8,268 bases of DNA, taken from the NCBI GenBank assembly GCA_003559395.1, contig PWLL01000007.1, forward strand, positions 1 through 8,268. The letters run 5' to 3'. How positions within the stretch are numbered: the first letter of the stretch is position 1; each line of letters opens with the position of its first letter. The notes under the pieces were generated by a model. The model worked only from the letters and a program-made list of their open reading frames with translations, was not told the origin of the DNA and did no database searches. Positions 178 to 8,268 of this stretch are shown piece by piece. Source of the stretch: Candidatus Iainarchaeum sp. Lineage in GTDB: Archaea > Iainarchaeota > Iainarchaeia > Iainarchaeales > CSSED10-239. A program made the position numbers and the translations under genes.

Positions 178-193
178 ATTAGAAGGTTTGGAT

Positions 194-1348
194 ATGTCAG
201 ACAAGAAATTCAACGATGTAAAGAAGTCATTAGAGAAAACTTCCGAATGGAAGAACCTTGACGAGGAAACGGCAACCAGAGTATTAAATGAAACGTATGG
301 GAAATATAAAGACCGATACGGCGTTCCCACTATTGTGTCGTTTATTCGTGGAAAACTCCGTAATGAGAAGAAATCAATTGATGCAGAAAGTGTAACCGGA
401 TTTACTCTTGGTGGGTGTGATAGAGAAGGAAAGAAACTTCCCGTTTCTCACGTTCTTGTGAAGAGCGATAAGAAAATGGAGAAGATTGTTGCTTGGAAGC
501 CGGGTATTATTCCATCGGGTGCGCACATTGTGACAATTAAAGGCACTTTCAACGATTCTTTTATGAATTACCAGATTGAAGAACTCGTTGAGGCAAAGCC
601 CGTTGATGATTTAAGTAAAATTTCGTCTGCGGCTTTGACAATAAACGATGAATCACAGTTTGAGAATTATCTTGGTGCTGGTTCTCCGTGTATGGTAAAG
701 GGGCGTATTGCATACGTTAATCCTGTTTTTAACAAGGATGATGAGGGCAACCGTGCCGATGCAAACCCAATTCTCTTCAATGGGAACCTCACATGCGAGA
801 TTGTTCTGGAATATGACGGTCTGGTATCTCTGAATCTTCGTTTGAACCCACAGAATAAGGGGAAACCCTATGTTGGAATATCGGATATTGACAATCTTGT
901 CGAAGATGCAATGACCGATTTTGAAACCGCCGAAGATCAGGCGAACTTCCTCCAGATGGCACTACAGGGACGGATGGTTCTGGCAACCGGAGATATTATG
1001 AATATCTCTGAGAGATTCACCAAAGAAGGTGAGAGGAAACTTCCGGTCTACATCAGTGTTGGTGGGATTATTGAAATTCCAGAAGAAGCACAGACTGTAG
1101 ATAAGCCAAAAGAGGAGGAAATTGAGAAGGAATTTGAACAGGATGCGGTTCCTGTCAATTCTAAGACAATTAACGCTCTTGCCGAACAGATTGTAGAATT
1201 CTGCAAAACGGTGAATAAAACGCCAACAATGGTATCACCAACCTCGCTTAAGAAAGCCGGAATCGGTGAGGGATACACAAACGCAGGTATTGAACTCGGT
1301 ATTCATAAGGCTAAGTCGTTATATGATAACGGCGCAAAACAGGCGTGA
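194..1348 (+). CDS. Hypothetical protein (384 aa from ATG 194); possibly an OB-fold ssDNA-binding or recombination accessory protein
   Basis: Long ORF. The track start at 188 is TTG; the first ATG at 194 lies 7 nt after AGAAGG (181-186). Stop is TGA 1346-1348. I see no nameable catalytic motif. Two beta-rich segments (about nt 383-592 and 680-1078) are followed by an acidic linker EEAQTVDKPKEEEIEKEFEQD (about 1076-1147) and a small C-terminal helical domain. The gene sits directly upstream of a Sak4-type ATPase. The functional guess is inference only. Confidence 0.6.
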   Translation: MSDKKFNDVKKSLEKTSEWKNLDEETATRVLNETYGKYKDRYGVPTIVSFIRGKLRNEKKSIDAESVTGFTLGGCDREGKKLPVSHVLVKSDKKMEKIVAWKPGIIPSGAHIVTIKGTFNDSFMNYQIEELVEAKPVDDLSKISSAALTINDESQFENYLGAGSPCMVKGRIAYVNPVFNKDDEGNRADANPILFNGNLTCEIVLEYDGLVSLNLRLNPQNKGKPYVGISDIDNLVEDAMTDFETAEDQANFLQMALQGRMVLATGDIMNISERFTKEGERKLPVYISVGGIIEIPEEAQTVDKPKEEEIEKEFEQDAVPVNSKTINALAEQIVEFCKTVNKTPTMVSPTSLKKAGIGEGYTNAGIELGIHKAKSLYDNGAKQA

Positions 1349-2135: not shown

Positions 2136-3544
2136 TATCAGTTAAAATCACAAATCCTCCGGGATCTGGGCTTTGTTTCATCAATGTGGGTAGAGGTGCA
2201 ATTCCTCCCTATGTTTTTGAGAATTTGGATAATACACTCTCAGATTACGTTAAAAATTTTGAATGGACAGAGAAGTTCAAATCAGGAGAATGGGATGGGA
2301 AATACCATCTTTTCAAGAAAGCGTCCAGTGGCTCTTGGTATTTTCCAATTGGTTACTTAAATGAGGTCGTTTCATATCTTCAATCTGAAAATATCGAAAT
2401 AGACGCAATTAACCTCCAAAAGCCGAACTGGACTAAAAAACTTGATATTTCGTGGAATTCTGATAAGATTGAGCTTAGAAAGTATCAGCGTGATATTATC
2501 GAAAAAATAATCGATTACAACGCACCATGCACGATTCAGATACCAACTGGTGCAGGAAAAACGGCAATTGCGTTAAATTACGCTTCGATATTGAAAAGAC
2601 CGTTTTTAGTGGTCGTTCATCGAAAAGAACTCCTGTATCAATGGAAATCAGAAATTGAAGCAATGTTTGGAGTTACACCAACTATTATTGGCGATGGTCG
2701 AAAGGATTGGTCTGGTGACATCGTTGTCGCAATGGTTCAAACTTTGCACAAGATTGTTAAATCGGGCGTTAAACTGGCGTTTCCGTTGATAATTTTTGAC
2801 GAGTGTCACACATTACCCGCTAGCGAGGCATATTCAACGGCAATGTCAATTGGAGCAAGGTGGAGGCTAGGATTGTCTGCAACAGCACGTAGAGAGGATA
2901 ATAAAGATAAAATGCTGTGGGGTGCGACTGGATCGATAATTTGTTCACTTACTGTGCCGGATTTGGTTAAGAAAGGATACCTGATAGAACCCATATTCAG
3001 GCTCATAGAAGCCCCTTATCCTTCACACATCATTGGAAATAGGGAGAAATACGCAAATGTCTACAAATATGGAATTGTCCATAACTCTGAACGAAACAAG
3101 AAAATCTTTGATGAAGCGAGAAAAGGTGTATTAGATGGGAGAAAAACCTACATCCATGTTAGACACATCAGACACGGAGAATTATTGAATAGAGAGATAA
3201 ATGGGTCTGTATTCATTCATGGTAACAGTAAAGATAGGGAATCGGCATTAGAAGCGTTTAAACGTGGTGAAATTCCTTGCCTCATCTCTACATTGTTAAA
3301 AGAGGGAGTAAACGTGCCTATAGCCGACAAATACATAAATGCGGCTGGTGGGGCTTCATATATCTCAACAATCCAGACTGCGGGGAGGACTCTTAGGACT
3401 GCTGAAAACAAAGAAAATACAATTATTGTGGATTTTATTGATAATGCACACAAATTTCTGGAAGAACACACCAGAATGAGGTTTGATGCGTATAAAGAAG
3501 TTTATGAAGAGTATTTTGACAATGCAGAAGTTATAGGTGGTTAA
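2129..3544 (+). CDS. Superfamily 2 DExH-box DNA/RNA helicase (ResIII-type N-lobe plus helicase C-lobe) with an N-terminal domain of about 115 aa
   Basis: Motif I IPTGAGKT (PTGAGKT = nt 2543-2563). Motif II FDECH (DECH = nt 2798-2809). Motif III-like GLSATARR. Motif VI QTAGRTLR near the C-terminus. KYQRDII lies upstream of motif I. AAGGGAGA precedes ATG 2129. Stop is TAA 3542-3544. Confidence 0.85.
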   Translation: MVISVKITNPPGSGLCFINVGRGAIPPYVFENLDNTLSDYVKNFEWTEKFKSGEWDGKYHLFKKASSGSWYFPIGYLNEVVSYLQSENIEIDAINLQKPNWTKKLDISWNSDKIELRKYQRDIIEKIIDYNAPCTIQIPTGAGKTAIALNYASILKRPFLVVVHRKELLYQWKSEIEAMFGVTPTIIGDGRKDWSGDIVVAMVQTLHKIVKSGVKLAFPLIIFDECHTLPASEAYSTAMSIGARWRLGLSATARREDNKDKMLWGATGSIICSLTVPDLVKKGYLIEPIFRLIEAPYPSHIIGNREKYANVYKYGIVHNSERNKKIFDEARKGVLDGRKTYIHVRHIRHGELLNREINGSVFIHGNSKDRESALEAFKRGEIPCLISTLLKEGVNVPIADKYINAAGGASYISTIQTAGRTLRTAENKENTIIVDFIDNAHKFLEEHTRMRFDAYKEVYEEYFDNAEVIGG

Positions 3545-3545
3545 A

Positions 3546-3896
3546 ATGGGTTTAGATATTAAGTTATTTAGGGTTTTACAGTGTGTTTGGGACGGAGGAA
3601 CGACACACAATATGGTTAAAATGGCAAATGAAATACCTGTTAGATGTATTAAAGATAAGCCTATAACAGCGTTTTGTTACATTTGGGACCCACACAATCT
3701 GGGAATCTTTCTCGCAAAGGATATGATTGAGCCATTGCATATAATAATATCAAGTATGTTATTAGAATATGATTCTCTGATTAAATTCAATCCTGAGAAC
3801 GGATGGGGAAGTTATAACGTATTCCTTCGGTTTTTGGTTGATTATTTCCTTGCTTGTAAGGAAAACCCAGAATCATATATTGAGGTGTATATATGA
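3546..3896 (+). CDS. Hypothetical protein (116 aa)
   Basis: The track start at 3537 is GTG, inside the helicase 3' end. ATG 3546 lies 5 nt after GGTGG (3536-3540) and 1 nt after the helicase stop. Stop TGA overlaps the next ATG (ATGA at 3893-3896). I recognise no domain. Confidence 0.7.
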   Translation: MGLDIKLFRVLQCVWDGGTTHNMVKMANEIPVRCIKDKPITAFCYIWDPHNLGIFLAKDMIEPLHIIISSMLLEYDSLIKFNPENGWGSYNVFLRFLVDYFLACKENPESYIEVYI

Positions 3897-4267
3897 AGCC
3901 AATTCAGCATCAACGGTATTTAAATTATATCCCGAAAGAGGAAATGGTAAAGAATGGAGAAATAAGGATGGATATTGTTATAGGAGGAACATATCGTGTA
4001 AATGATGAGGTTACATTCATAAACGGGTTATATGCCAATAATGTGTTAAAACGGGCTAGGATCGCCACCATTGAGCCATTATATATGGATAAATCTGGAG
4101 TCTATACGGTCATTGGGTCTGAACAAATACTGAATGTATGGAATAGTGAGTTTGTTAATTCTCTCGCATTGGAGTATGGGTTACGTGATTGGAAGGAATT
4201 TAAATTTCTATTCACTAAATTACACGGATTACAAGCAAAAATGAAATATCAGGTTATTCGATGGTGA
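3893..4267 (+). CDS. Hypothetical protein, weakly ASCH/PUA-like
   Basis: GAGGTG lies 5 nt upstream of ATG 3893. The C-terminal half (ARIATIEPL...LALEYGLRDWKEFKFLFTKLHG...YQVIRW) resembles the ASCH-domain pattern of a beta-barrel strand, an EGF-like segment, then a terminal strand. The N-terminal motif is not clear. The family assignment is tentative. Confidence 0.55.
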   Translation: MKPIQHQRYLNYIPKEEMVKNGEIRMDIVIGGTYRVNDEVTFINGLYANNVLKRARIATIEPLYMDKSGVYTVIGSEQILNVWNSEFVNSLALEYGLRDWKEFKFLFTKLHGLQAKMKYQVIRW

Positions 4268-4274
4268 TTGAAAA

Positions 4275-4664
4275 ATGTTAAGAATTGCACACGATTTGGA
4301 TTATACTATCCTCTGGTCGGATGTTATGCCAAAACCAGCTAGGATTTGTGCCGATTCAGCACCGTATCTGAAAGAATGTTATATCGGGAAGGAGAAGGAC
4401 ATTAAGATGATTATTACAGGACGACCAGAAAGCGAGCGACCAGAAACAGAGGATTTATTGAGGAGTTTTGGAATTGATGCAAAATTAATCATGAATCCTA
4501 TAGAAAACTTCAAAATGGAGCATATTGCTACAATAAAGGCTCAATATTTGTATGTTAATCTAATTAGCTTCTATGTGGAGGATAATGATTTCTACCGTAA
4601 AGTAATGTCCGAATATTGGGATGGAAAATGTATTAGTAGCGAGGAATGGATGAATTATGTTTGA
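4275..4664 (+). CDS. Small HAD-superfamily phosphatase (polynucleotide 3'-phosphatase / nucleotidase-like), with no kinase domain
   Basis: HAD motif I DLDYT (DxDxT, nt 4293-4307) follows a hydrophobic strand. Motif II is IITGR. A conserved Lys sits in ATIKAQY. Motif IV is the acidic FYVEDND. The order and spacing resemble the phosphatase half of phage Pnkp-type enzymes. GGTGAT lies 6 nt upstream of the ATG. Confidence 0.6.
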   Translation: MLRIAHDLDYTILWSDVMPKPARICADSAPYLKECYIGKEKDIKMIITGRPESERPETEDLLRSFGIDAKLIMNPIENFKMEHIATIKAQYLYVNLISFYVEDNDFYRKVMSEYWDGKCISSEEWMNYV

Positions 4665-4902
4665 AAGTAACAAGAAACACAAATTAAACACTAGAGCGGC
4701 GATTTCCCAGAGTTTATCGGAAGGGAAATCAATAACCCTTAAATCTTCGGTTAATTCAAGAGAAACCGTTGTATTTGTGTTTAATTCAACAACAAACCTA
4801 GTAAATGCTTATGGTGCTAGGTCTTTCAGAGAAATGAGTACATATACCTTAAACCAAGCAGGAGATTACATATATAAGAATTATAACCGTATAATCTGGT
4901 GA
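4657..4902 (+). CDS. Hypothetical protein (81 aa)
   Basis: ATG 4657 overlaps the upstream stop (ATGTTTGA) and GAGGAA lies upstream. Stop is TGA 4900-4902. No recognisable domain. Confidence 0.6.
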   Translation: MFESNKKHKLNTRAAISQSLSEGKSITLKSSVNSRETVVFVFNSTTNLVNAYGARSFREMSTYTLNQAGDYIYKNYNRIIW

Positions 4903-4903
4903 T

Positions 4904-5317
4904 TTGGTGAGTAAATGGATAAATGACGATGGATATTACAATATTCGTATAAACGGGCGTGTAATGTTAGAACATCGTCACATCATTGAGCAAAAAATAG
5001 GGAGGGAATTAAAAGAAAAAGAGCGGGTTCATCATATAAATGGGGATAAATTAGATAATAGACCAGAAAATCTGGTTATTTTATCTAATAGAAGACATAC
5101 AGCATATCATAATACGGGGAAATTAGAGCCTATATGGGCATTTACTACCTGTTTATACTGTGGAAAAGTAATTGAACGAAGAATTAAGAAAATGAAAGAA
5201 AGACCACATTCTTTCTGTAACAGGGAATGTTATCGGTTAGGAGCGCATTTAGCACCCGGAAACAATCGGAAGGGAATTAAGAAAGCAAAAACAAGTTTGG
5301 GGATTAAAAATGACTGA
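4904..5317 (+). CDS. HNH homing-type endonuclease (HNH_3-like) with a C-terminal zinc ribbon
   Basis: The core is EHRHIIEQKIGRELKEKERVHHINGDKLDNRPENLVILSNRRHTAYH (H-N-N-H spacing). The N-terminal KW..DGYY.I.INGR strand is typical of phage HNH_3 proteins. The C-terminal part is CLYCG...FCNRECY. There is no in-frame ATG before the domain, so the start must be TTG 4904 or GTG 4907, just after GGTGA (4898-4902). Confidence 0.85.
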   Translation: MVSKWINDDGYYNIRINGRVMLEHRHIIEQKIGRELKEKERVHHINGDKLDNRPENLVILSNRRHTAYHNTGKLEPIWAFTTCLYCGKVIERRIKKMKERPHSFCNRECYRLGAHLAPGNNRKGIKKAKTSLGIKND

Positions 5318-6143
5318 TTTGACAAAAGAATGGCTAACACCACCAGAAATAATTAATCTAGTATTAGAGGTTTTTGGTGGTGAAATAGACCTTGATCCAT
5401 GTTCCAATCTGGGAATACCCAATATTCCGGCAAAGAAACACTACGATATTTATTCAGACGGATTGAAACAGAAGTGGAAGGGCAAAGTATTCCTTAATCC
5501 TCCATACGGGCTTGATGTTAATAATTGGGTCAATAAACTTATCAGAGAAATGGAAAATTTCGATGAATTGATACTAGTTGTGGCTGCACGAACAGACACG
5601 AGATGGTTTAAGAAATTAAACAAGTTTCCGTGGTGTGGGGTTAATGGGAGAATTAAGTTTATTAAATACAATTCCTTAACGAAAACTCAATATGAGAATC
5701 AATCCTCTCCTGAATTCCCTAGTGCGATATTCTATATCGGTAAAAATCTTCAGAAGTTTATATCGGTATTTTCACGAATTGGCCCGATTTGGATTAATTA
5801 TACTACCACAACGAATGAAAACAAAAACGATTCCAACTTCAAGGTTTGTTCCGAATGCGGATTGATAAAATCAATGGAATCATATTATTTCAAAGCGGGA
5901 AAACCATTCAAACAATGCAAGTCCTGTATAGCGAGGTTAAGGAAAACTAAGCGTAAAAAGCAGATATATAAGAATACGACTATCATAGATCCTGACGATT
6001 TACGAAATATGTTTAATGAAGAGAATCTATCCGTTTCAGAAATAGCGTATATTATAGGAAGAACACCGAAATCTACGGGAGCATTATTGAGAAGATTTGG
6101 GGTTGATACACATGCTAGAAGGGGAAAGTATCAGAGGGACTGA
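5310..6143 (+). CDS. Phage Dam-family DNA N6-adenine methyltransferase fused to a C-terminal zinc ribbon and an HTH DNA-binding module
   Basis: The N-terminal EWLTPPEII..V.EVFGGEIDLDPCS signature and the catalytic NPPY (nt 5496-5507) match the phage Dam family (PF05869-type). ARTDTRWF and GRIKF also match that family. After about residue 165 come CSECG...CKSC (about nt 5847-5927) and an HTH, LSVSEIAYIIGRTPKSTGALLRRFGV (about nt 5994-6107). ATG 5310 overlaps the HNH stop. Confidence 0.85.
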   Translation: MTDLTKEWLTPPEIINLVLEVFGGEIDLDPCSNLGIPNIPAKKHYDIYSDGLKQKWKGKVFLNPPYGLDVNNWVNKLIREMENFDELILVVAARTDTRWFKKLNKFPWCGVNGRIKFIKYNSLTKTQYENQSSPEFPSAIFYIGKNLQKFISVFSRIGPIWINYTTTTNENKNDSNFKVCSECGLIKSMESYYFKAGKPFKQCKSCIARLRKTKRKKQIYKNTTIIDPDDLRNMFNEENLSVSEIAYIIGRTPKSTGALLRRFGVDTHARRGKYQRD

Positions 6144-6498
6144 AATTAGTAGGTGTGAGGTTTGTGGAGAATTTATCACACACGGTTCAAAATGTTGTCG
6201 GAATTGTTATCAAAAAGTTCCAAGAATCTATAAGCGTTCAAATGATATATGTAACGAGATTAATTCGATGATTCAACCATATTTAAAGTCTGAATTGGTA
6301 TCTCCTTTATATATATCGAAGGAAATTTCAGAAAGGATGATAACAACATCACATAAGCCAACGATAGCCAGATTTGTAAGGATTTTGTTAAAAGACTACG
6401 GATACATAAACGATCCCAATTGCACGGCAAAACGAAACAGATTAATGATATTCGCTGGTCTGGATGGAGAAAATAATGAAAGGAAAAAGACCGTGTAA
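6112..6498 (+). CDS. Hypothetical zinc-ribbon protein (128 aa from ATG 6112)
   Basis: N-terminal CEVCG...CCRNCY (CxxC...CxxC). The track start at 6097 is TTG. The first ATG at 6112 still overlaps the methyltransferase gene by 32 nt. Stop is TAA 6496-6498. The C-terminal half is unassigned. Confidence 0.55.
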   Translation: MLEGESIRGTEISRCEVCGEFITHGSKCCRNCYQKVPRIYKRSNDICNEINSMIQPYLKSELVSPLYISKEISERMITTSHKPTIARFVRILLKDYGYINDPNCTAKRNRLMIFAGLDGENNERKKTV

Positions 6499-6664
6499 AT
6501 TGGGGTGTATTTTCTTTGTTGAAGAAGATATGGGGATAGTTATAATATGGTCGTGTAGATTGATGAATAAACAAATTGGGTATGAAACAGACGGTGATTT
6601 GTTAGATCCTCCGGGGTGTGATCACTGGACTGATGGTGCTTGGGATATGCGAGCAATTCCTTAA
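6476..6664 (+). CDS. Small Cys-rich hypothetical protein (62-66 aa)
   Basis: The ORF spans 6464..6664. ATG 6476 lies 5 nt after GGAGA (6466-6470), and ATG 6464 is the alternative. It overlaps the upstream gene by 23-35 nt. It contains CKLGC...C...GCDHW. Coding status is supported mainly by the tight operon context. Confidence 0.45.
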   Translation: MKGKRPCKLGCIFFVEEDMGIVIIWSCRLMNKQIGYETDGDLLDPPGCDHWTDGAWDMRAIP

Positions 6665-6696
6665 AAGACAATTTAAAATCGTTTGGTAGGTGAATT

Positions 6697-6981
6697 ATGT
6701 GTAAAGTATCGCGCGATTATGAAAAACTGAATGATTACTACTGGTTATACACACAATATGTTGTTAAAGGGCGTTCATCAACAAAAATAGCGAACGAAGT
6801 TGGTTGTCACAAATATACCGTAATTAATGCACTAAAAAAACACAAAATTGAAATTAAACCACGTGGTGGTTATCATGGGGTTACTCGCGGTAAGGCAATC
6901 TCATTGCGCCCTGCAATGTATAGTATGCCAGAAGAACTCGCTAAAGTGCTTAAATTACCATCAAATAAGGAAGAAAGATGA
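6697..6981 (+). CDS. Helix-turn-helix DNA-binding protein, paralogous to the C-terminal HTH of the methyltransferase
   Basis: AGGTGA lies just upstream of ATG 6697. The segment DYYWLYTQYVVKGRSSTKIANEVGCHKYTVINALKKHKIEIKPRGG aligns position for position with DPDDLRNMFNEENLSVSEIAYIIGRTPKSTGALLRRFGVDTHARRG of the preceding methyltransferase. Shared positions are S..(E/K)IA...G....T....L(K/R)(K/R)...R.G. Confidence 0.7.
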   Translation: MCKVSRDYEKLNDYYWLYTQYVVKGRSSTKIANEVGCHKYTVINALKKHKIEIKPRGGYHGVTRGKAISLRPAMYSMPEELAKVLKLPSNKEER

Positions 6982-6997
6982 AATTAGGTGATATGAT

Positions 6998-7204
6998 ATG
7001 GGTTATGATGAAAGTGTCTTTAAAAGGGCTGTAGATTCATATGGTAGTGATATGCAGCAGATTGTTTGTGTTGAAGAACTTTCAGAGTTAATACAGGCTT
7101 TATGTAAAGAAATGCGACCACATCGAAGAAATATGTTAGTTTGTCGTAAACAAGACATATTATCAATCGCGGAGGAATTATCTGATGTTGAGATAATGTT
7201 GTAG
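6998..7204 (+). CDS. MazG-like nucleoside triphosphate pyrophosphohydrolase, N-terminal 68 codons up to an in-frame TAG (likely continues to 7357)
   Basis: AGGTGAT lies 5 nt upstream of ATG 6998. It contains the paired acidic helices typical of small phage MazG-like proteins: VEELSELIQALCKE (EExxE) and IAEELSDVEIML (EExxD). The ORF ends at TAG 7202-7204 in the middle of the expected helix. Confidence 0.65.
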   Translation: MGYDESVFKRAVDSYGSDMQQIVCVEELSELIQALCKEMRPHRRNMLVCRKQDILSIAEELSDVEIML

Positions 7205-7357
7205 CAAATCAAGTATGTTTTCGATAATAAGACTCAATCGGGAGTTAGATTCTCTGAATTGGTTAAAAGCCTAAAAGAGATGAAAATTGAGAAGTTAGAG
7301 AACAATATTACCGATTATAACAACAAAATGGAATCTTTTTCATCTATGGTGGATTAA
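7205..7357 (+). other. In-frame, stop-free continuation of the MazG-like ORF beyond the TAG (50 codons, ends TAA 7355-7357)
   Basis: The same frame reads QIKYVFDNKTQSGVRFSELVKSLKEMKIEKLENNITDYNNKMESFSSMVD. The other two forward frames stop at 7225-7227 and 7272-7274. No independent start preceded by an SD exists. The terminal TAA abuts the next ATG (7358). Whether it is translated depends on how the TAG is decoded. Confidence 0.5.
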
Positions 7358-7624
7358 ATGGGATTTATTGGAAGATTATTGGGAAAAGAGGGTAATAATG
7401 AATTTATCCTCAAAATATCGTTAATTAACGATATGGGTGAAGTAATATCGTTAAATCAATATCCTGTTACAGATGGGTGTGTAATAGAGTATGATTGTAA
7501 ATTGGAAACTAATGTGGAACATATATCCGAAACTATCTGTATAATGATGTCACACATTATGTTCTCCAATCTGGACAGGGTAACGAAAGTAGAGTTTGAA
7601 ATAGTGAGGAAATACCATGTTTAA
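7358..7624 (+). CDS. Hypothetical protein (88 aa)
   Basis: GGTGGA lies 5 nt upstream of ATG 7358. Stop TAA 7622-7624 overlaps the next gene's start (ATGTTTAA). No recognisable domain. Confidence 0.6.
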   Translation: MGFIGRLLGKEGNNEFILKISLINDMGEVISLNQYPVTDGCVIEYDCKLETNVEHISETICIMMSHIMFSNLDRVTKVEFEIVRKYHV

Positions 7625-8219
7625 TTGGCTTATAAAACTAATTTGTCCGGCAAATGACGATAATGAGAAGATTACGGCTCTTAAAGATGAGGTATTTGAA
7701 GCTGAGATTAAAATCAATGAATTACAAGACCAGCTCAACGAATGTATGGATATAAAAGACGCCAGTATATCGGTGTATTCTGAATATAAAGATATTCTTG
7801 GAGCGTATTTCTGTAAATTTGAAGATAAAAGACAGATTACAAGAAAAGAGTGTATGACGGCATTTAAGCCGTTGATTTTAACCGACACAATACAGGCGTT
7901 TGCGGATAATCTGTATAAAACAGTCAGTAAAAGTGATATGGAAAAATTCTTGGTTAAGGATAAAACAAGCCTCAGAAAATATTATGTAACGGAGTTCTTT
8001 GATTGTGACGATTTTGCTTTCAGGCTTAAAGGGAACATAACAACCCAGAATAACGCCGATATTGCATTTTTTATCGTATGGACATCAACACACGCATTTA
8101 ATGCGTTCATTGACCATAACCACAAAGTATGGTTCATAGAACCACAAACAGACGAGATTCTAGACCCTGTTGATACTCACCATCATTATTATAATGGATT
8201 GGCGGTTATTATAGGTTAG
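7617..8219 (+). CDS. Coiled-coil protein with a C-terminal transglutaminase-like / papain-fold Cys-His-acid domain (putative cysteine peptidase or isopeptidase)
   Basis: GAGGAA lies upstream of ATG 7617. The N-terminal part is a heptad-like helix (ITALKDEVFEAEIKINELQDQLNE). The C-terminal part, FDCDDFAFRLKG...THAFNAFIDHNHKVWFIEPQT, matches the transglutaminase-core pattern C-x-D-[FY]-A ... H-A-[WF] ... W-x-x-x-[DE]-P-x-T. The candidate residues are Cys at nt 8004-8006, His at 8091-8093 and Glu at 8139-8141, with Glu 16 residues after His. The ORF ends at TAG 8217-8219. Confidence 0.55.
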   Translation: MFNWLIKLICPANDDNEKITALKDEVFEAEIKINELQDQLNECMDIKDASISVYSEYKDILGAYFCKFEDKRQITRKECMTAFKPLILTDTIQAFADNLYKTVSKSDMEKFLVKDKTSLRKYYVTEFFDCDDFAFRLKGNITTQNNADIAFFIVWTSTHAFNAFIDHNHKVWFIEPQTDEILDPVDTHHHYYNGLAVIIG

Positions 8220-8268
8220 AGGCGATCATTATATTCCGATATAAAAATGGTAAAATATGGGTTAGAAA

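Follow-up and report, generated by a model that had tools for sequence, protein, structure and literature searches.

An in-frame TAG in a MazG-like gene of a tailed phage: nonsense mutation or sequence error rather than stop-codon reassignment

The stretch of DNA analyzed here (8,268 bases, hereafter the window) contains a MazG-like gene whose reading frame meets a TAG and then runs on, open, to the start of the next gene. We asked whether this TAG is decoded, as happens in phages that have reassigned a stop codon, or whether it simply ends the protein. The first-pass annotation had preferred decoding, through codon reassignment, suppression by a tRNA, readthrough of a programmed kind or pyrrolysine; its alternative was a newly arisen nonsense mutation (GAG, CAG or AAG to TAG in one step) or an error in base calling. 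We conclude that the TAG is an ordinary nonsense mutation or a sequence error and not a reassigned stop codon.

Gene layout around the interrupted frame

The window has a G+C content of 37% and about 15 tightly packed genes, all on the forward strand. It is the early, replication and nucleotide-metabolism module of a tailed phage, with genes for an AAA_24 ATPase, a ResIII/DEAD helicase, an HNH_3 endonuclease, a Dam methylase and the MazG-like pyrophosphohydrolase. Farther downstream, a relative from a JGI metagenome (see below) encodes an exonuclease of the PD-(D/E)XK type (PHROG 298), a protein of 1,067 aa that weakly matches a primase and a PAPS-reductase-like protein; portal and terminase genes were found on a related contig of the same JGI sample.

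We then looked into the reading frames at the interrupted gene (Table 1). The open reading frame at 6998-7204 encodes 68 residues and stops at the TAG in 7202-7204, past which the same frame holds 50 open codons up to the TAA in 7355-7357, and this TAA is followed, with zero spacing, by the ATG at 7358. The two remaining forward frames are closed soon after the TAG, at 7225-7227 and 7272-7274, and inspection of 7205-7357 by eye revealed no plausible start codon with a ribosome-binding site. The junctions between the other genes of the window are overlaps or gaps of at most 32 nt. Rereading of the sequence thus confirmed everything that the first-pass annotation had reported of the TAG, the open frame, the abutment of TAA and ATG, the ribosome-binding site, the closed frames and the gaps. 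The probability of at least 50 open codons after a stop is about 0.017, given the base composition, and in the window itself, 4.8% of the intervals from stop to stop, counted over all three forward frames, reach at least 50 codons. Open runs of this length are common enough by chance that openness alone is only suggestive.

Table 1. Positions in the window of the interrupted MazG-like gene, its signals and the genes that follow it
Feature	Position	Strand	Evidence
Ribosome-binding site AGGTGA of the MazG-like gene	6986..6991	+	Read from the sequence; 6 nt upstream of ATG 6998
MazG-like gene, codons 1-68, with EExxE (E26, E27, E30) and EExxD (E59, E60, D63)	6998..7201	+	ORF list, translation, PHROG 2245
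Premature TAG, codon 69; GAG (Glu) in three near-identical assemblies	7202..7204	+	Single G-to-T at 7202; L001, L002 and L003 read G; P0002 has E69
MazG-like gene, codons 70-119: end of helix 3, loop, helix 4; Q70, K96, R99	7205..7354	+	Family HMM, conservation table, AlphaFold model
GGTGGA ribosome-binding site of the 88-aa gene, inside the end of the MazG-like gene	7348-7353	+	Read from the sequence
Native TAA of the 119-codon gene, abutting the ATG of the next gene	7355..7357	+	In L001, L002 and L007, the called 119-aa gene has this stop
Downstream 88-aa gene	7358..7624	+	Called identically in relatives
TAG as genuine stop of the 200-aa gene 7617-8219	8217..8219	+	P0153 and P0154 end at the same ...IG residue, with TGA

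Several neighboring genes have features of their own. The first ORF of the window (188-1348, 386 aa, listed with a TTG start) has no Pfam or PHROG match and, as mechanically called, overlaps the ORF of the AAA_24 ATPase (1266-2135) by 83 nt; given this overlap, the true starts probably lie further downstream. The exact sequences of the ATPase and HNH proteins, as called from the first start codon, are absent from the protein collection, which suggests that the depositor used different start codons. The HNH_3 endonuclease gene (4904-5317) is placed among the replication genes, and the 94-aa protein encoded at 6697-6981 matches only the noncatalytic part of two HNH-endonuclease families (PHROGs 8446 and 7545); a helix-turn-helix remnant and a DNA-binding domain that stands alone are both conceivable. 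In the JGI relative (L007, 11378-13631), a 485-aa protein that has a Pfam SSF (sodium:solute symporter) match on record and that matches PHROG 20720 (unknown function) with an E value of 2.8e-87 is followed by the PAPS-reductase-like gene (PHROG 424). Such a pair is not usual where a phage replication module ends, and the two are possibly auxiliary metabolic or DNA-modification genes.

The frame downstream of the TAG and the MazG-like protein

We then analyzed the sequence encoded downstream of the TAG. Against PHROG 2245 ("nucleoside triphosphate pyrophosphohydrolase"), the 68-aa part scored 54 bits and the joined product 76 bits over residues 4 to 112 (E value of 6.5e-21). The 50-aa extension alone scored 20.8 bits against a family HMM built from homologues only, with the query left out, while five shuffled versions of it scored 4 bits or less and the other two frames less than 0 against the same HMM. 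An exhaustive HMMER search recovered 1,895 homologues with E values of 1e-3 or better; the best 150 of them are mostly 90 to 120 aa long, and most of their alignments cross position 69.

The alignment of 63 homologues from which we derived a conservation table points the same way. None of the 63 ends before column 95. Three of the best-conserved residues, the invariant K96 and the nearly invariant Q70 and R99, are encoded 3' of the TAG. At column 69 itself, the homologues carry mostly Glu (37 of 63), then Asp (9), Asn (4), Ser (3), Ala (3) and Gln (2). An AlphaFold2 model computed on the homologue alignment (mean pLDDT, 95.7) predicts four helices, at residues 5 to 15, 17 to 38, 47 to 76 and 85 to 118; residue 69, where the TAG stands, falls within the third helix, and the helix at 85 to 118 would be lost upon termination there.

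Among the relatives described below, the codon for Ile97 varies between ATT and ATC, with T at window position 7288 in L001 and C in L002. This polymorphism is synonymous and thus fits a frame that is translated and under selection in the relatives. The JGI assembly (L003, L007) has an N at the same site, so the sister population is polymorphic within the MazG-like gene.

The sequence at 7205-7357 is real coding sequence, the C-terminal part of the same MazG-like gene, as judged by homology. The first-pass annotation had assigned the stretch to this gene and had expected a stop after ...EIML to truncate the fold; both statements are upheld, the former by the gain in PHROG 2245 score, the 63-homologue alignment and the family HMM, the latter by the structural model. 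It had also considered that homologues might end naturally at ...EIML, which none of those aligned does, and had asked which residue they carry at the column of the TAG, with the answer given above. Accordingly, 6998-7357 should be annotated as one interrupted MazG-like gene and not as a 68-aa gene followed by a 153-nt spacer.

The assignment to the MazG-like family, which the first-pass annotation had made from the EExxE and EExxD motifs, agrees with the PHROG match and with the conservation of these motifs: E26, E27, E30, E60 and D63 do not vary, and 58 of the 63 homologues have E59. Other searches gave weaker signals. A Pfam search with the protein itself yielded no match to MazG (PF03819), only subthreshold chance matches, and PF03819 gave weak matches in 8 of 63 family members. 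When compared with PDB chains, the family profile matched 5ie9, 2gta and 2q73 weakly (E values of 0.0015 to 0.02), and a wider list comprising 5ie9, 2gta, 2q73/2q5z and 4qgp extended to an E value of 0.24. A single-sequence search of the PDB returned only chance matches to IL-10. Foldseek found no significant match in the PDB, with DCTPP1, 1vmg, 2yxh and 3cra among the top structures at E values of 0.3 to 2.4 and TM scores of 0.42 to 0.56. Since the protein lacks a Pfam MazG match of its own, PF03819 is recognized weakly in few of its relatives and the Foldseek matches are not significant, we read it as a distant branch of the MazG-like superfamily, for which a similar way of working is well supported as a prediction and strict Pfam membership is not.

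Codon 69 in near-identical genomes: nonsense allele or sequence error

We then searched for genomes that carry the same gene. Clustered at 90% identity, the 68-aa product falls together with a protein of 119 aa (P0002), which is identical to it save for a Glu at position 69 and is encoded on two Logan contigs, from SRA runs SRR490129 and SRR490128. A pattern scan with N at the variable base yielded one match in the JGI metagenomes, SL_3KL_010_SEDDRAFT_10001792 (19.6 kb). The relatives compared were thus the two Logan contigs and the JGI contig (L001, L002 and L003), with a 13.8-kb stretch of the JGI contig (L007) used for gene content. L001, L002 and L003 align to the window without gaps at 99.6 to 99.7% identity over 2.5 to 5.9 kb. 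Given that one protein (P0154) was found in both JGI sample 3300000563 and SRR490128, the three very likely stem from one sampling project and represent one sister population, not three independent ones. No relevant publication turned up in a literature search on their run and sample identifiers.

In all three near-identical assemblies, the codon at 7202-7204 is GAG where the window has TAG, and the 119-aa protein is otherwise identical. The stop is therefore one base step away from a sense codon that near-identical genomes carry, and its ancestral state can be inferred. As GAG is found in all three relatives and Glu is the family consensus at this column, sequence comparison indicates that the ancestral codon 69 is GAG and that the TAG of the window is derived by a one-step G-to-T change. 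The TAG form itself was not encountered again. An exact look-up of the 68-aa product on contigs showed that no other contig on record encodes it, and the same look-up for the helicase returned nothing on record. Scans of the viral_contigs and genome_contigs collections with the sequence that surrounds 7202, in which the variable base was set to N, gave no match, nor did a megablast search of the whole window against GenBank phages; a word-indexed protein search with the joined product recovered only the window's own 68-aa ORF.

We propose, with a probability of about 0.55, that the TAG is a true nonsense allele that arose very recently and belongs to one strain variant. The MazG-like gene would natively comprise 119 codons (6998-7357), and a single G-to-T transversion at 7202 would have turned the ancestral GAG (Glu69) into TAG. 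Translation would then end after residue 68, in the middle of helix 3, and the product, devoid of helix 4 and of Q70, K96 and R99, would for that reason most likely be inactive. The leftover 153 nt would be an intact but untranslated remnant of the gene; a remnant of a recently interrupted gene is expected to have a frame that is still open and still ends exactly at the ATG of the next gene. That the T is present in the DNA, and is not an error, we infer from the variation around it. Compared with L003, the window differs at 17 called bases in 5.9 kb, plus one site where L003 has an N, and its differences in 2363-5546 are mostly synonymous. The window is thus a distinct haplotype and genuine strain-level variation exists, which counts in favor of a real allele.

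The second reading, which we hold to be less probable and still quite conceivable, is that the deposited contig is wrong at 7202, through an error of sequencing, assembly or consensus calling or through damage, and that the real phage has GAG and a complete gene of 119 aa. G stands at this position in all other assemblies of this genome, and the TAG variant is confined to this one NCBI contig, which speaks for an error and against a real allele. A G-to-T change is also the classic signature of 8-oxoguanine. Moreover, each of the seven window-specific differences in 5547-8268 alters a protein, a pattern that random errors would give, against 1 nonsynonymous and 10 synonymous among the other differences (Fisher P = 2.5e-4). 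The frame downstream of the TAG is free of any decay, as it would be if the stop did not exist, but this is equally expected from a very recent real mutation. An error also sits less well with a window that is clearly a separate haplotype, whose differences in 2363-5546 are mostly synonymous, and with the nature of the window-specific changes, five of seven being A/G transitions, which are also typical of real mutation. The GAG of the relatives and the standard use of TAG described below thus bear out the alternative that the first-pass annotation had named, a fresh GAG-to-TAG mutation or a base-call error, with the nonsense allele as our preferred form of it.

The seven differences unique to the window, in the part that all three relatives cover (5547-8268), lie at 5935, 6093, 6148, 6262, 7202, 7398 and 7691 and correspond to R/K, R/G, S/G, N/D, stop/E, N/S and E/D, respectively. 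In four of the seven, the window has A where the relatives have G. Of the polymorphisms among the relatives and the differences in 2363-5546, taken together, 10 are synonymous and 1 is nonsynonymous. Contig errors, selection that is relaxed or positive, or changes that arose in the sister population could each account for these seven protein-changing differences; only for 7202 is it established which state is derived.

Use of TAG elsewhere and comparison with known systems

We then evaluated how TAG is used in the rest of the genome. The 200-aa gene at 7617-8219 is terminated by a TAG, and two homologues of its product, P0153 (48% identity) and P0154 (58%), both end at the same ...IG residue, where their genes have TGA stop codons. 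As these diverged homologues stop with TGA at the same residue, the TAG at 8217 is a real terminator, and TAG is, on this comparison, a genuine terminator in this genome. The 23 genes called in L007 are tightly packed under code 11 and, over 4,418 codons, contain no internal stop of any kind; they end with TGA (11 genes), TAA (9) or TAG (3). In the window genes, the only internal TAG is the one at 7202. A search with ARAGORN found no tRNA gene in the window, L001 to L003 and L007, that is, in about 22 kb of an incomplete genome. The code in use is the standard bacterial code.

The TAG at 8217 was itself considered as a second candidate for readthrough, since the frame stays open for 40 codons after it, and was rejected: the homologues terminate at this residue with TGA, and the extension has no aligned counterpart. 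In the relatives, this TAG precedes a gap of 150 nt (window 8220-8268; L001 2674-2823; L007 5858-6007), the largest intergenic gap of the module, in which the frame is open for those 40 codons and which holds a candidate 31-codon ORF with an ATG start (MVKYGLEIFLG...). A scan for promoter and terminator consensus sequences around the two gaps detected no more sites than in shuffled sequence. The 200-aa protein has a strongly conserved C-terminal half (DCDDFAFRLKGNITTQ...HAFNAFIDH..KVW.IEPQ), weak Pfam matches to Agglutinin_C and Lectin_C_term and no PHROG match; a word-indexed search found very few homologues, all in Logan and JGI metagenome assemblies.

These results make it improbable that the TAG at 7202 is decoded to give the full-length 119-aa protein, be it through a suppressor tRNA of phage or host, a code-15-like reassignment, pyrrolysine or leaky readthrough. 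Such decoding would account for the intact downstream frame that ends exactly at the next gene, and a suppressor tRNA may sit outside the roughly 22 kb of the genome that was seen. Since phages may restrict recoding to their late genes, a missing signal in an early module is no absolute proof. Against decoding, the site is not kept as TAG or CAG in the near-identical genomes, which have GAG in three of three cases, and nothing conserves the stop. Programmed readthrough, which would go with a conserved stop and context, is likewise not indicated, as the context is identical in the relatives but for the sense codon that they carry. The conserved C terminus of the 200-aa protein is terminated by TAG, and TAG ends 3 of the 23 genes of L007 while being internal to none of its 4,418 codons. 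Neither the window nor the 13.8 kb of L007 yielded a tRNA gene. The inference preferred in the first-pass annotation is thus not supported: the relatives have GAG and TAG terminates at 8217, and of the signs of recoding that it had proposed to look for, other genes interrupted only by TAG are lacking in the window and among the 23 genes of L007, and no tRNA, with a CUA anticodon or any other, was found by ARAGORN in the 22 kb. Decoding keeps its small share of probability only because the genome is incomplete; every test that was run went against it.

Slightly fainter still is the prospect that 7202 is truly a T and that partial suppression of the amber codon takes place in the natural host, by a host or phage suppressor tRNA encoded outside the sequenced part or because the host decodes Pyl. 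The strain would then still make some full-length MazG-like protein, and the phage would be one that tolerates an in-frame TAG of recent origin, which might be an initial step toward stop-codon recoding. That the 68-aa ORF is a natural short form, with 7205-7357 as a noncoding spacer or a separate small gene, is barely credible: the 68-aa part does have both acidic motifs and reaches its 54 bits to PHROG 2245 alone, but the lengths of the homologues and the family HMM score of the extension, which is homologous to the family C terminus with its invariant K96, refute it in practice; the 119 aa encoded by close relatives speak against it as well, and no plausible start with a ribosome-binding site was noticed in 7205-7357.

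The preferred reading, a recent nonsense allele, carries little biological weight, as does its closest rival: one copy of a small phage accessory gene has a one-base premature stop or a sequence error, and the finding is ordinary and of an already known kind. Its value is methodological. A lone in-frame TAG with a frame that is open to the next gene mimics recoding, and a fresh point change looks identical. Such cases are quickly settled by checking two things: which codon near-identical genomes carry at the site, and how the genome in question uses TAG at other places.

Compared with the MazG-like all-alpha NTP pyrophosphohydrolases (PF03819; 1vmg, 2yxh, 5ie9, 2gta and human DCTPP1), the protein is alike in being small and all-helical and in its acidic motifs; it differs in having no Pfam MazG match of its own and Foldseek E values of 0.3 or worse, and its activity and substrate are predictions from sequence. 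With the TAG-to-Gln recoding (code 15) of crAss-like, Lak and other gut phages, the locus shares an in-frame TAG in a conserved gene whose frame continues to a proper end. In contrast to those phages, there is here a single TAG, the relatives have GAG (Glu), TAG is a true stop elsewhere, no suppressor tRNA was found and the coding density of the relatives is already maximal under code 11. The closest parallel is a phage accessory gene that has recently acquired a nonsense mutation and is a pseudogene in the making (or a single-base consensus error): the change is one base step, the frame is intact and there is no other sign of recoding, so that the locus does not differ in kind from such cases.
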